Under the pieces are notes generated by a model. It was not told the DNA's origin and ran no database searches. It saw only the letters and a list, made by a program, of their open reading frames with translations. Made by a program: the position numbers and the translations under genes. A stretch of DNA of 62,585 nt, filler included, from Circinaria calcarea (taxonomy: Eukaryota): the NCBI GenBank assembly GCA_051942165.1. It is 15 parts of 15 records of this genome, joined end to end, with 100 filler letters (N's around TTAATTAATTAA, not from the genome) between each part and the next. Parts side by side here need not be neighbours in the genome. Positions count along the whole stretch, not along the records: positions 20,985 to 25,076 come from JAVECS010002480.1; 14 more parts are not named here. One strand, 5' to 3'. This document shows, one piece after another, positions 20,002-26,895 of this stretch (position 1 is its first letter; each line of letters begins with the position of its first letter).

Positions 20002-21324
20002 GGAAGAAGGGGAGGAAGGCGGGGGAGAAGAGGAATATTGTGGGGGAAGGTGAGAGGGGATGATATAGGCGAGGGGTGAAATTGTTGCTTGCGGAAAGAG
20101 AAAAAGAAACCCATAGGGAAGTTTACTTTGGTCAGATGGGGAAGCTTGGTCCCGAGGATATTGCAAGTTCTGTCAATCGAGAAAGAACGGACAAACCTCT
20201 GCGTACCCGACCAGCAACCGTCTCAACGGAGATCAGATACCAAGCAGCCGGCCTCAACTTATGCCACCTTATGAACACTATATCCCACGCCTAATACGAA
20301 GACTTCGTCCTTCACCGTTGGCATGCTGAGCTCAAAACTCACAGCCTTGGCGCAAATCGTTTCCTTCGTTTCAATAACAACCATCGAAGATGCGTGCAAG
20401 AGGACTGCCGGCTATGCAGAAAGAAGTATGGATGGCCGTAAGCGGGGAAAAGAAGCATGCAAGATAACAATAGGGGATAGATACCTAAATATCACCAAAA
20501 GGCAAAGGCTTCAAAGGGACATATATGCTCTAACCCCTGGACTTTAACGAGAGGAACAGCTGTGTTGATAACTCATCAAGGAAGGAGAGAGAGCCTTTAA
20601 GACTGGGGTTTTGGTTGCATCCGCTGTCGCTTGGTACCCCGGTCCTTCTTCTATCCTGCCGCATAGACCAGACAAACGATTTAGATATGGGTCGCTAGCA
20701 GTTAGCTAAATTTATACAAAAATTCCATCCCGGCCCTCATTCCACCCCCAAGAGAAAAAAACCTAACGGTGTCATCTCTCAGCCTTGCGTTATGTTCCCC
20801 CTCCCCCCCTGACTGTGTGAATCACTCGCAACGAACTCCAAACAGTCACGCTCTATTCGATTCACACACCCAATCCCCCCAACCNNNNNNNNNNNNNNNN
20901 NNNNNNNNNNNNNNNNNNNNNNNNNNNNTTAATTAATTAANNNNNNNNNNNNNNNNNNNNNNNNNNNNNNNNNNNNNNNNNNNNAGGTTACTTGAAACTT
21001 GGTTGGGATGAAGGAGGAGGAGGGGAGGGTTGAGGTTGAGGTGGAGATGGGATGGGATGGGAATAGTGATAGGTACCCTTGGAGTATGGTATGGCAAAGT
21101 ATGGCCAGGTAAGGTTAGGTCGATAGATATTATTTTTTGCCATCACGGACGAAACGCAATGAGTGGCACGAGTGAAGATTTTGTAGATTGGAAAGCAAGA
21201 ACGTTTCTTTTTCTCCCCCCACGATTCAAGCCATCTAACCTATTCGAGGTACCCTTTCCCTTTCCCTTTCCCAACTCAACAAACTTCCAGTTGCGTGTGC
21301 AAAAATCTCTCTCGCTTTTCGTGT

Positions 21325-22506
21325 TCACTCTCCCTCCTCTAACCAGGTCCTCTCCTCCCGGGGGGTTCCACCCACCAGCGGTAGTCGACAGCTGCCTATG
21401 CCTGCATCTTGAGATTCAGTGGGAACCTTACAGGACAAGCAGAACCGGAAGTGAGTTCCAGAAACACTTACAGGCGTGGCGTCTTCGGGAAGAGCCTCGG
21501 CGTCACGGTCCACGAGGTAGAAGTCGCAGCAAGTGGACGCGTCTGTGTTTTCTTCCGCGCGGGCTTCGAGGTCACGTTTCCAGCTGTAGCCGACTTTGGT
21601 TTCGGCATCAGAAGCCTATGTATTGTTAGATGAGTATCTGTGGAATGGAAGGATGTCGACTTACCGCGTCAGTCTCGGTGTCGACGCTACGATCCACGAG
21701 GTAGAAGTCACAGCAGGTGGACGCGTCAGTGTTTTCTTCGGCACGAGCCTCAATCTGATGGAGTTAGTCGCACTTCTAGAACAAGGAAGACGAGGGTACT
21801 CACTTCACGTTTCTGTTCGACAGTGTCTATCCAAAAGCAAAGGTTGGTACGTCAGCACGGATACACGATAGAGAATTAAGAGGATGAATAAATGGTGCAA
21901 TGAGAGATCAAAAGAGGACGTGGGGAAGTCAAATGGGCATTTGGCTTTTTCGCCATATTGTCATGTTGAGAAATGCATTATAGCTTTGCTCTTCGACCGT
22001 AAACAATCACCTTGAGAGACTATTGGGGAGAGTGGCTTACCTGCAACAAAGGTTGGGATTGGTTGAATGGTGGGACGGGATAGAGTTGCAGTAGAGATCA
22101 AGGGTGGGTAAGGAAGACCAGGTACGGTTGTGGGAAAGATCTTGAAAGAAAAAGTTCTTGGAATTGCCTTGGAGGAAGTAGTGGCCTTTAGGGTTGTACG
22201 GGTACGAGTGACAGTATAAGTTCGAGAAAGCTTATGGGTGGGCCTTGGATTGATGACTGAAAGAAACCGTTTTTAGTGAGGCTGTCCAATAGCAAGTGGA
22301 CGAAGGGAAACTTACTGTAGCCAGTTGTAGTGTGGGTGGCTTCAGACTTGAAATCTCCATCACGAGCAACAAGACCAGCTGACAGAATATTAATGTCTTA
22401 TTCACTGATCGAGGTAGGAGTGCGGCTCACGGTTGGGTAGGGCAACAGCTGCCACATCCTGGATGATGGCCAAGCCAAAGACGACAAGAGCTGCTTTAAA
22501 CTGCAT
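21325..22506 (-). CDS. Secreted Kex2-processed repeat protein (KEP)-like precursor, 7 coding exons
   Basis: Exons 22506-22431, 22378-22316, 22256-22041, 21826-21804, 21754-21665, 21615-21472, and 21426-21325 (alternative last exon 21395-21339). All are GT-AG and phase-compatible. Signal peptide MQFKAALVVFGLAIIQDVAA; two KR sites; repeat EARAEENTDASTCCDFYLVDR x2; TATAAAA at ~22915-22921. Confidence 0.85.
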
Positions 22507-23853
22507 GTTGAGGGATTGTATCTACGTTTGCACAAGCCTGTGTTAATAATTAGCAGGATGCAGGAGAAACAAGTGGAAGTTGCGGTCATAGTGGGGAAAG
22601 GGTGGATGATTAGAGAAGATGGAGGCCATAGCCTGGTAAGTTGGACCAAGCCTTGCTGATGTATTGGTACACAAGTTAAGGTCACCAAGGGCTGTCGAGG
22701 GAGATGTAGTGTAGAGATTGAAAGGTCAAGTTTGCACAGATGGGTGAAGCTGCTAGATAAAGGCTAGATCGACAGCAGACATAGCTGAAGGGACTTACTT
22801 TGAGAGATATTGATTGCTAGTGGTGACGAGTGCGGATGATCTAGACAAATGTAAGAGAAGGTATTGGTCCAAAGGGGAATATGGATGGGAGGAGAAGGTG
22901 GAGGTAAGGAAACCTTTTATAGCACAGAGGATGAAAAGCCAGTAGCGTCGTAGTCATTTGGAAGTGAAGCATCTCGCGGAGAGTTGATCCATTTGTGCTC
23001 TAGTGCTATAGCATGAGCAGCTTAGGGAGATTTATAGAAGTGAAACATTCTGGATGAAGACTAACGTGTCGGGAATATAGTATATGAAAAGATCAATATG
23101 AAGGAAAAGCCGAGATCTGATTACTCTATCCTCCGCCAAATCTTTGTTGAGACACAGGCCCGGCAGCACATGTCCACAACCATAATGCAATGTCTCAATC
23201 TCCCGAATATGAGAAAGGACCCCCGAAATGACAGCTCAGCTGACAAATGAACGGTAAGAAGATGCGGGTGCACTTGAGTGTCCCCATCATGTCAACCCCG
23301 ATTGCAGTTATCCGTTGCAGAAAGGGAATATGTAAACTGCATAGTGATGTTTGGCCATGGAGCGTGAAGACCTTTTCATATTTGCTCCCAATAGCCGGAT
23401 ACCTTCTCAAACTAGGCTATCGTACCTTTTTTAGGTAAACCAAGTAAACTCCGACCTTCAACGATAGAACGTGAAAACCTCAATCTAGTTGGTATAGGGT
23501 TTACCAATCCTTGAAGGTGAGCGTTATTGCAGTCTCTATGTGAGAGATATATCGGCATCTCGCACGCTTTTGATACGGCAAGTATAAATATAGAAATACT
23601 CCCACTCCCATACAGGTGTTGATATCGATGTTCAACGACACCTCCGTCGAGGTAAAGTATTCCTTCAACTGTTGCTCGAATGTCATGGACCGTGCCACCC
23701 AAGCAGCTGGACTGTGCAAACCCAGTACTAATAAGCGAACCGCTTAAAATAGCAGGACCTGAGCGGCGAATCAGAGTTACTCTATTGATATGGAGTGACG
23801 GCAGTTCATCCAGCTCAAGATATTACCACTGAAAGCTCTCATATCAAAAGAAA

Positions 23854-24896
23854 ATGGCATCCAAGATATTACCTTTCTTTTCAAGGAGTATAGTTCGCAG
23901 ATCAATAGCCATACAACCACCTCAATGCCGTTTCCTCACCTCCACAGCACGTGTTGCAAGTGATGCCCTACAAGTCGTATGGATCAAGACCTACTCTTAT
24001 ACATAAAACGCTTGTACTAACACGAAGACCTAGCACCGAGACACCCCCAATAATAACCCCTCAATACCCTTCCAATTCAATGCCATCAACCAAAAACTCA
24101 TCGCCGAGATCCTCAAACGATATCCCCCCCAATATAAAAGAGCCGCCGTAATGCCCCTTCTTGACCTGGGCCAAAGGCAGCATGGCTTCACAAGCATCAG
24201 TGTCATGAACGAAGTCGCTCGGATACTAGAGATCCCTCCGATGCGCGTCTACGAGGTCGCAACTTTCTACACCATGTACAACCGGGACCCGGTCGGGCGC
24301 TTCCACCTGCAAGTCTGCACAACGGTACAAAATCCCCTTCCCCCCCCTATCTTCTCACCCAATACACATATAACTAACCCGGCAACTCTCGCTCAAAACA
24401 GACCCCCTGCCAACTCGGCGGCTGCGGCTCCGACCTCATCATGCGCGCCATCGAATCCCACCTCGGCGTGCACGCTGGCCAAACCACGCCCGATGGCCTC
24501 TTCACCTTCTCCGAAGTCGAATGCCTCGGCGCCTGCGCCAACGCCCCCATGGTGCAGATCAACGACGACTACTACGAAGACCTGACCCCCGAGTCCACCA
24601 TTACCTTGCTCAAAGCCCTGCAAGCGTCTGCCGAAACCACAGGAGCGGCAGGCGGCACGGCCGGGATAGGAGGGGAGTCGACGATGGGGATGGGGGGTAT
24701 GAAAGGAGAGGAGAGGGGCCAGGGTGACGTACGTGTGCAGGAGAACGCGGGAAGGACGTACAGTGGCAAGGGCGTGACGTTGCCGAGTCCTGGGCCCATG
24801 AGTGGCAGGAAGAGCTGTGAGAATTCGGCTGGGCTGACGAGTTTAACCGAGGAGCCGTGGGGCCCGGAGAAGTTGAGGACGGATGGGGCGTTGTAG
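23854..24896 (+). CDS. nuo-24: NADH:ubiquinone oxidoreductase 24-kDa subunit (NDUFV2), mitochondrial
   Basis: Basic presequence, [51 protein letters not shown] and [11 protein letters not shown] (2Fe-2S ligands); two introns. Confidence 0.97.
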
Positions 24897-26895
24897 GTTA
24901 TATATTTTGGAAAAATGGGGGGGCGGGGTGGTACAGTCTACTGAAATTCGGATTTTCCCTTTGAATACTTGTATTGGGAAAAACTCCGATCCTAGCACAT
25001 GTTTTTCTCTTTCCTAACCAATCAACCTCGTCTCCTTTAAACTTCCCCACCCATTCCTCCCCCTTCTCCATAATCCNNNNNNNNNNNNNNNNNNNNNNNN
25101 NNNNNNNNNNNNNNNNNNNNTTAATTAATTAANNNNNNNNNNNNNNNNNNNNNNNNNNNNNNNNNNNNNNNNNNNNGTGAGGAGCTTCATTGTCTGTTTA
25201 TGTTGGTGTTTGAAAATGCCGAGATTGTGGATTCAAGCTTTGATGCTTTGGACTGACTGGATGAGATTGATGGTTGGAGGAGGAGGAGAAGATTGATCTT
25301 GGATGATGATGAGGAAAAAGAAGAAGGGAAGAAGGGGTGCTTATATACTTGGGAGCCAGACAGCAATGACATTTGGGTCTGAATAATGCCAAGGTCATTC
25401 CCTGGGGTTCGCCTCGTCCCATTCGCATCTTTCACGGCCTGGACTCATGTCGACGACTAGCAGATCGTGGTATTGCATATTCGCCAAGCTGCTTGCCGCT
25501 TCGTATAGTCGTGCCATTGGGCCTCAAACCTTGACATTTGCAAGGAAAGGTGGAGAGGGGTGCCAGGGGCGAGGAGGAAGTAAGGGAGGTGATGGGATTA
25601 GATCAACTGAATCAGCTGTTCAACTGGAGTCGAGCGAGGCCCATTTTGCCCTAACCATTGGATTTCTGAATACCACCACCTGTTTGTTATTGAAGCCAAA
25701 TTGGGAGTTGAGGAGACTTGGTTCAAGTCGATCAGTGTTCCAATTTGATCGAGCGAGGCCCAATCTTGCCCCCAAATCGTTGGTTGCACTGCTGAATGCA
25801 AACGGTCAATTCGCCGTTGGAGCACGGCTGGATGAACGCCACCAACGGGAGTAACTCTTAACCGCACAAATAAACCGGCACCGAGATTCAGAAAGCCTGG
25901 GTATAAAGCGAACATCGAAACAGTTCCTGGCCATTGAGTCTTGGAGTCTCGCTCCGCTTCATCAGATCCAGTTAAGCCTGTTGCTAAGAAGGGTATTTTC
26001 TATACGTAAGTCTTACCCGTGCCGCCGGCTACGTTACACACCGCCCAAATCAATAGGTCTGGGGAATCCGGGGTAGTCGCAGATCGGCGGGTGCCTGCCT
26101 AGCGCACGTTGCAGATACGAACGGAGTTCTCTGCGGGGGGCGGTGACACCGCCGAATAAGTAGTACTCTAAAAGTCCTTGCGTCGAGTCGGAAATTCACC
26201 ACCGCAATTTCCGATGCCAAATGACATTTTTTAGCGACAAGGTTTTTATCCGACAAAGCACTTGAGAAGTTACTCGTCTACGGGATGCTGCATGGGTAAC
26301 TTTTGAAGTGCGAAAGCCCATTGGAACCATCTGGGTGCTCAGGATTCTGCTGTCGCTGCAACGGAAATAACTGTTAACACTCGGCACTACCTGGTAAAAT
26401 AAGTGCCTTACCATACGGAGTATCTTATTTGGGTTTCTAAAAACAACTTTGTTATTTACAACCCGGTAATTATTCCGGTCGCATGCAGCAAGCAGAATAG
26501 CAGCGTAGAATGCGCCAGTCACGTAAGTAAAAATACCCTAATATGTAAAAATCCACGTTAAAATAACCAAAAGGGATTCACTAGCCGAGACTTCTAGAGC
26601 GTGTGTGGTGGAGTTTAAATAGCTATTTTCGTTATCCTATCCTAATTAACAACCACTGTACCATAACAAAAGGGGGCCAAAAGCTACCATAGTGTTTATC
26701 CGAATTGGGGAAGTCGCGAGAGAATTACGAAAAGCTCAGCCCAGCCCAGCGGGGGATATTATTTAAAAAAACAACACCTACATTCATTTTTTTATAAATC
26801 ATAAGTATGGAAACAAAAGCTGAGTGCGTAGGTAAATTTTTAAACCTATGGGGCTGGGCTGGGCTGGGGCTTGGAATTGCTGCCAAAAAATACTT

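Follow-up and report, generated by a model that had tools for sequence, protein, structure and literature searches.

The question raised by this locus is what kind of product is made from a small interrupted gene that encodes two copies of an acidic repeat with the core STCCDFY: a linear signalling peptide, a cyclic peptide of the dikaritin type, a mating pheromone, or a secreted peptide with some other role. The gene belongs to Circinaria calcarea, which we take to be a lichen-forming ascomycete, and it lies on the minus strand of the contig at positions 20985-25076 (JAVECS010002480.1; G000:C2480) of the window, as we call the whole stretch of 62,585 nucleotides that was analysed. This stretch is a chain of contigs of approx. 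4.1 kb with N-linkers between them, and the source assembly comprises 31.5 Mb in 5,512 contigs. The contig covers 2.6 kb upstream of the ATG and ends 354 nt past the stop codon; no other contig of the genome overlaps its 3' end.

Judged by its reading frame and splice sites, the gene is real, being encoded on the minus strand in seven exons with GT-AG junctions. One open frame runs across six of them (22506-22431, 22378-22316, 22256-22041, 21826-21804, 21754-21665 and 21615-21472), and introns 1-5, of 52, 59, 214, 49 and 49 nt, all show GT..AG ends as well as branch-like hexamers. An independent public gene model, P0002 (partial, hypothetical protein, labelled Circinaria calcarea), has the same translation except for the exon-2 acceptor, placed at 22396, and an open end at exon 6. 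The features of the gene and of its neighbour are the following:

22915..22921, minus strand: TATA-like box, present in the sequence, with a putative function.
22538..22798, minus strand: probable 5'-UTR intron (GTAAGT ... CTAAT ... CAG), predicted from the sequence.
22431..22506, minus strand: exon 1, with the start codon and a predicted signal peptide (approx. residues 1-22), from hydropathy; the same in P0002, and aligned with the N-terminus of the homolog P0005.
22316..22378, minus strand: exon 2, with an LVAR site at 22373-22362; P0002 takes acceptor 22396 instead.
22041..22256, minus strand: exon 3, a frame-symmetric Thr/Pro/basic pro-region, absent from the homologs and skippable without a frameshift.
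21804..21826, minus strand: exon 4, a microexon of 23 nt in which the first dibasic site lies (QKR, 21815-21807), from the sequence.
21665..21754, minus strand: exon 5, with an IEAR site, the first STCCDFY core (21721-21701) and an LVDR site, from the sequence.
21472..21615, minus strand: exon 6, with a VGYSW unit (21594-21580), KR, LEAR, the second STCCDFY core (21537-21517) and LVDR, from the sequence.
21339..21395, minus strand: exon 7 in the preferred model, with a VDYRW unit (21389-21375), an RR site and the stop codon; the VDYRW codons agree with those of VGYSW at 13/15 nt.
23854..24896, plus strand: NADH:ubiquinone oxidoreductase 24 kDa subunit, a divergent housekeeping neighbour (PF01257, E 3e-24 and 5e-26).

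The predicted N-terminus is hydrophobic (Kyte-Doolittle, 11-residue peak of 3.0) and aligns with that of P0005, two findings that agree with the signal peptide proposed in the initial annotation and point to entry into the ER. Alignment to P0005 is slightly better with the exon-2 acceptor at 22378 than with that at 22396 (score 37 vs 31), and the exon 4 microexon resembles the TVEKR spacer of the same homolog. Since exons 2 and 3 are frame-symmetric (region 21805-22315), either could be skipped with the frame kept, and the Thr/Pro exon 3, which the homologs lack, may be alternatively spliced.

The seven-exon model of the initial annotation holds for the six exons in frame; its last exon, however, was placed with an end at 21325, which needs acceptor 21426 or read-through. 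The acceptor at 21395 is the counterpart of the intron-5 acceptor (CATAG/GC), and it leads to a stop at 21339 and a protein of 222 aa. The codons that it opens are identical to those of VGYSW in 13 of 15 nt, a level reached in 6 of 20,000 shuffles, and are the sole other match of at least 12/15 to these codons in the window. Against this choice counts that both mismatches alter the amino acid. The rival acceptors are 21401, 21407 and 21426, the first of which (CAG, 6 nt upstream of 21395) runs into a stop after one codon. From the sequence it is quite likely that exon 7 begins at 21395, and the last exon would probably span 21395-21339 and add a second V-x-Y-x-W unit, the duplicated unit being made of a core exon, an intron and a V-x-Y-x-W exon. 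The peptide content first listed, two copies of CCDFY and one of VGYSW, is present in the DNA but probably incomplete, as the VDYRW unit of the last exon had been missed.

The Y-x-W unit is not present in the homologs P0003, P0004 and P0005. In pairwise alignment the VGYSW unit sits where a homolog has a CCDFY repeat, and for this reason it may be a diverged copy of that repeat; the V-x-Y-x-W units also resemble the A[IV]AYAW cores encoded beside DUF3328 genes on contigs C883, C830 and C946. These two candidate origins, a diverged CCDFY copy and an AYAW-type core, cannot be told apart here. The pattern V-x-Y-x-W-K has five further matches in the whole genome, none of them in a precursor context.

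The clearest mark of function is the conservation of the repeat. As had been claimed, the two 21-codon repeats (21751-21689 and 21567-21505) differ at synonymous sites only: our recount gives eight differing sites, 8/8 of them synonymous, for which the chance is approx. 0.246^8 = 1.3e-5, and purifying selection appears to act on the repeat. When 1.84 billion representative proteins were searched exhaustively with HMMER, the gene itself and two homologs, P0003 and P0004, were recovered; a profile search, whose scoring covered the 8,000 best candidates with lengths of 95-368 aa, added P0005, labelled Trapelia coarctata. This protein has an N-terminus that resembles a signal peptide and five repeats bounded by KR, and it is 80% identical to P0003. 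The family as found has these four members. STCCDFY is identical in all 16 repeats of the four proteins and is followed by I, V or L, while flanks and spacers vary; the repeat number is two in the C. calcarea gene and four to five in the homologs.

The gene is single-copy, with no paralog in its own genome, since a search of the genome contigs matched only itself; CCDFY codons gave two real matches in the whole genome, those of the gene, and two chance matches. Pfam assigned no family to P0001 or P0002 and none above the cut-off to P0003-P0005, PDB sequences gave no match for P0005, and the ESM Atlas provided weak pheromone-like leads only and no usable further cluster. In the JGI metagenomes, 0 of 125 pattern matches were confirmed as homologs, and the 94 exact matches to the STCCDFY codons, 14 of which had short flanks only, all stood alone, with neither an acidic leader nor a second core in any of them. 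No mention of the core turned up in the open-access literature, a scope that ends before the sequence tables of two KEP (Kex2-processed repeat protein) surveys and the subscription papers, nor did titles or abstract openings of the lichen pheromone and lichen KEP literature yield anything on the family. It is provisionally regarded as undescribed, and the two KEP surveys may include the family in their sequence tables, or subscription papers may describe it.

The second line of evidence is the processing signature of the repeats. KR sites separate the repeat units in 3/3 homologs. When trimming is predicted by a cut after the nearest upstream Arg and removal of XA/XP dipeptides, 12 of 14 homolog repeats end up with the same start, at -6 relative to the first Cys, eight of them through ladders of 1-7 dipeptides and four directly; the two exceptions are the first repeats of P0003 and P0004, which have long leaders. 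A or P occupies 27/29 second positions vs 4/31 first positions, in a register test that left out four empty and two long leaders. As the -6 position was chosen from the data and the repeats are non-independent, the Fisher P of 1e-10 is too strong a figure. The predicted homolog products after trimming have mostly 14 residues, and the pattern as a whole is the signature of Kex2/Kex1/Ste13 processing.

The C. calcarea copy departs from this scheme. XA/XP ladders, found in 3/3 homologs, are absent before both of its cores, where the cut would stop at -9. A KR lies between the two repeats, but the sites immediately on either side of each core have a single R, so that 17-residue peptides are predicted between IEAR or LEAR and LVDR. 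Peptide release in this species would accordingly depend on the monobasic sites IEAR, LEAR and LVDR, the last with Asp at P2. In the alignment each of these sites falls on a KR or a single R in the homologs, where VVSR, ITGR and LKER are in use too. KEP products cut after single arginines are reported (PMC9769878), processing is described with other P2 residues too (PMC2515848), and LXXR appears in a list of Kex2 motifs (PMC12141369). Among the genes of the genome are one for a kexin-type protein with a P-domain and one of the dipeptidyl peptidase IV/Ste13 type.

With a predicted signal peptide in P0005, KR-flanked repeats and an invariant core in the homologs, and kexin and DPPIV/Ste13 genes in the genome, the KEP architecture proposed at the outset is supported, and the precursor is very probably a KEP. 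The sequence data mark it, provisionally, as a new type of KEP from lichen fungi whose conserved Cys-Cys core is unusual, within a class that is known and very diverse. It shares with described KEPs the signal peptide, the short repeats between basic sites, several repeat types per precursor, and Ste13 ladders like those of some non-pheromone KEPs; it differs from them in the adjacent cysteines of STCCDFY, a core not found in the papers searched, and in the monobasic sites of the C. calcarea copy (PMC6339444, PMC7329392, PMC9769878). KEPs are common, one survey counting 7,878 of them in 838 types and a further 2,560 as singletons (PMC7329392), and the architecture as such is therefore unsurprising. 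What stands out is a core with adjacent cysteines, given that few fungal ribosomal peptides are described as disulfide-bridged (PMC10840396), and one that is kept unchanged across two lichen genera, whereas lichen RiPP clusters are reported to be mostly species-specific, with no repeated cores in the conserved clans of that study (PMC12048977).

For the mode of action of the products we lean towards a linear, ligand-like one. The signal peptide would carry the precursor into the ER, where oxidation would probably join the adjacent cysteines in a vicinal ring or link them between chains. Kex2 in the Golgi would then cut after KR and after single R at the aligned positions, Kex1 would trim the basic residues and, in the homologs, Ste13 would remove the XA/XP dipeptides. 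The product would be an acidic, linear peptide, 14-17 residues long and secreted with no cyclisation by DUF3328, and the C. calcarea copy would deliver two 17-residue peptides (21742-21692 and 21558-21508) and two V-x-Y-x-W peptides. The released peptide would most likely act as a receptor ligand, hormone-like and not as a mating pheromone; we infer this step from the core of seven invariant residues, the defined N-terminus and the free flanks. According to PMC6339444, precursors of toxic cyclic peptides lack the STE13 signature, which instead marks peptide-hormone candidates. Against linearity speaks that both C. calcarea copies lack a ladder and are bounded by monobasic sites alone, and against a hormone-like role the patchy range, with four members found. 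A more speculative extension, which we put forward tentatively and consider unlikely as a whole, is a non-mating hormone of lichen fungi with a vicinal Cys-Cys ring or as a disulfide-linked dimer, unchanged from Circinaria to Trapelia, serving fungus-fungus or fungus-alga signalling, with a precursor that also releases Y-x-W peptides, possibly DUF3328-modified in trans. The predicted products are short and synthesisable and their masses can be calculated, which makes this candidate lichen signalling peptide directly testable; for the 17-residue peptide the monoisotopic mass is calculated as 1894.72 Da in reduced form and 1892.71 Da with one disulfide.

As to the cysteines, the nearest parallel is acalitide, a fungal ribosomal peptide with oxidised Cys for which an ER disulfide isomerase is proposed; it differs in having a single 30-residue core, the peptidase AcaB, a head-to-tail ring and non-adjacent cysteines, and Kex2 is not mentioned in its paper (PMC10840396). 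No open-access paper was found on a vicinal disulfide in fungal RiPP peptides.

The alternative that survives best is that of a dikaritin-type RiPP precursor, in which a copper oxidase of the DUF3328 kind, with its gene beyond the 3' end of the contig or in trans, would act after Kex2 cleavage and cross-link the Tyr in the CCDFY cores, the Y-x-W cores or both, giving cyclic and probably defensive peptides. We regard it as possible though rather unlikely, and the linear reading as more likely. Like the dikaritin precursors UstA, PhomA, AprA and GigA, the STCCDFY gene has a signal peptide, E-D before a Tyr core and KR after it: Tyr is found in 16/16 cores, with E at -5 and D at -4 in 12/16 each. 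The repeats read as E-D leader, Tyr core and x-D-KR follower. Tyr after E-D occurs in UstA (PMC6514808) and in a DUF3328-linked precursor of the same genome. The Y-x-W units resemble the DUF3328-linked AYAW cores of this genome, which has 71 PF11807 matches on 36 contigs. Approx. 30% of ascomycete KEPs have a DUF3328 gene nearby, and Tyr is found in 65.6% of DUF3328-linked KEP repeats vs 38.2% of others (PMC7329392). Unlike dikaritin precursors, the STCCDFY gene has Cys in the core, Ste13 ladders in the homologs and a housekeeping 5' neighbour, and its contig shows no match to DUF3328 or tyrosinase.

The location of the modifying gene can be compared within the genome, dikaritin clusters being defined by DUF3328 proximity (PMC9632046). 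No PF11807 match was found on the 4.1 kb contig, including the 3.3 kb upstream of the core and the 354 nt covered downstream, in line with the earlier statement that the contig carries no DUF3328/UstYa gene. These 3.3 kb are taken up by 5' exons of the gene itself, the promoter and then the complex I 24 kDa gene, which is 74-83% identical to named homologs and belongs to no peptide cluster; no Trapelia-labelled protein was among the best 120 of its 1,203 matches. In a crude repeat screen of stretches of all 36 DUF3328 contigs, 13 of them not covered end to end, precursor-like repeats were found on 7/36, giving seven precursors beside DUF3328. These represent approx. four independent types, with less than 1 kb of downstream room in 4/7; DUF3328 lies upstream in 7/7, and within 1.8 kb of the first core in 6/7. 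The precursor studied here has no DUF3328 in that place. Ste13 ladders occur in 3/3 STCCDFY homologs vs 1/7 DUF3328-linked precursors; of the 26 units of these seven precursors, one starts with XA/XP. The dikaritin option suggested by the initial annotation keeps its Tyr core after E-D but is weaker than implied, with ladders in the homologs and no DUF3328 upstream; it keeps some probability because the 3' side of the locus is missing from the contig.

The control precursors are diverse in their own right. Those on C883, C830 and C946 have EDAD-x-A[IV]AYAW cores, in three repeats on C883 and one each on C830 and C946. C1887 and C3542 carry near-identical precursors with seven and nine KR-flanked AEDAV[TS]YPDSY repeats, C1070 has four repeats with an AFSYLDYFH core, and C1815 two with an EAVVYS core. 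On C812 a tyrosinase gene lies beside two DUF3328 matches; a DAIEYRW string just past a DUF3328 stop there has neither start nor signal peptide and was judged a chance occurrence.

It is quite unlikely that the product is a secreted peptide outside signalling, either a metal chelator of acidic character built on Cys-Cys, Asp and Tyr or a surface peptide that polymerises through disulfides like Ustilago Rep1. Both named carriers of the core, Circinaria and Trapelia, are presumably rock-dwelling lichens, which would suit such a role, as would adjacent cysteines amid acidic residues in a repeat region of pI approx. 4.1. Thiols in the secretory pathway, however, are normally oxidised; the fully invariant S-T and F-Y flank suits contact with a receptor or enzyme better, and two to five repeats are too few to fit bulk chelation as well as they fit such contact. 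Structural KEPs of the Rep1 type do exist (PMC7329392).

Very unlikely, too, is that the family is functional while the C. calcarea copy is drifting, having lost its dibasic sites and leaving its cores unreleased in a small secreted Thr/Pro-rich glycoprotein. Neither core of this copy is directly flanked by KR, and the extra Thr/Pro exon has no counterpart in the homologs; against drift stand the 8/8 synonymous differences between the repeats and the alignment of every single R with a KR or single-R site in proteins that themselves use VVSR, ITGR and LKER.

That the gene encodes the alpha-type mating pheromone of these lichens, an option of the initial annotation, is highly improbable: although MF-alpha and ppg1/ppgA precursors share the Kex2/Kex1/Ste13 signature, two cysteines per peptide and a linear product with this family, whose homologs carry Ste13 ladders and whose nearest ESM Atlas clusters are pheromone precursors (at 0.79 and 0.76, leads only), the STCCDFY peptide is acidic with adjacent instead of C-x6-C cysteines, the precursor proteins have no MF_alpha Pfam match, and the option is unsupported because another contig carries a fragment of a canonical precursor in which FCYRPGQPC is repeated twice, in two copies. 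This fragment (G000:C3624:50-265), cut by the contig start, is the 3' part of an alpha-type precursor with KR/RR sites and an EA/EP-rich spacer. It was found with a looser C-x-x-P-G pattern, while W-C-x3-G-x2-C patterns yielded no repeated pheromone. No paper describing a sequence of the FCYRPGQPC type was found in the lichen pheromone literature searched; the motif resembles one from Xylona quoted in PMC6339444.
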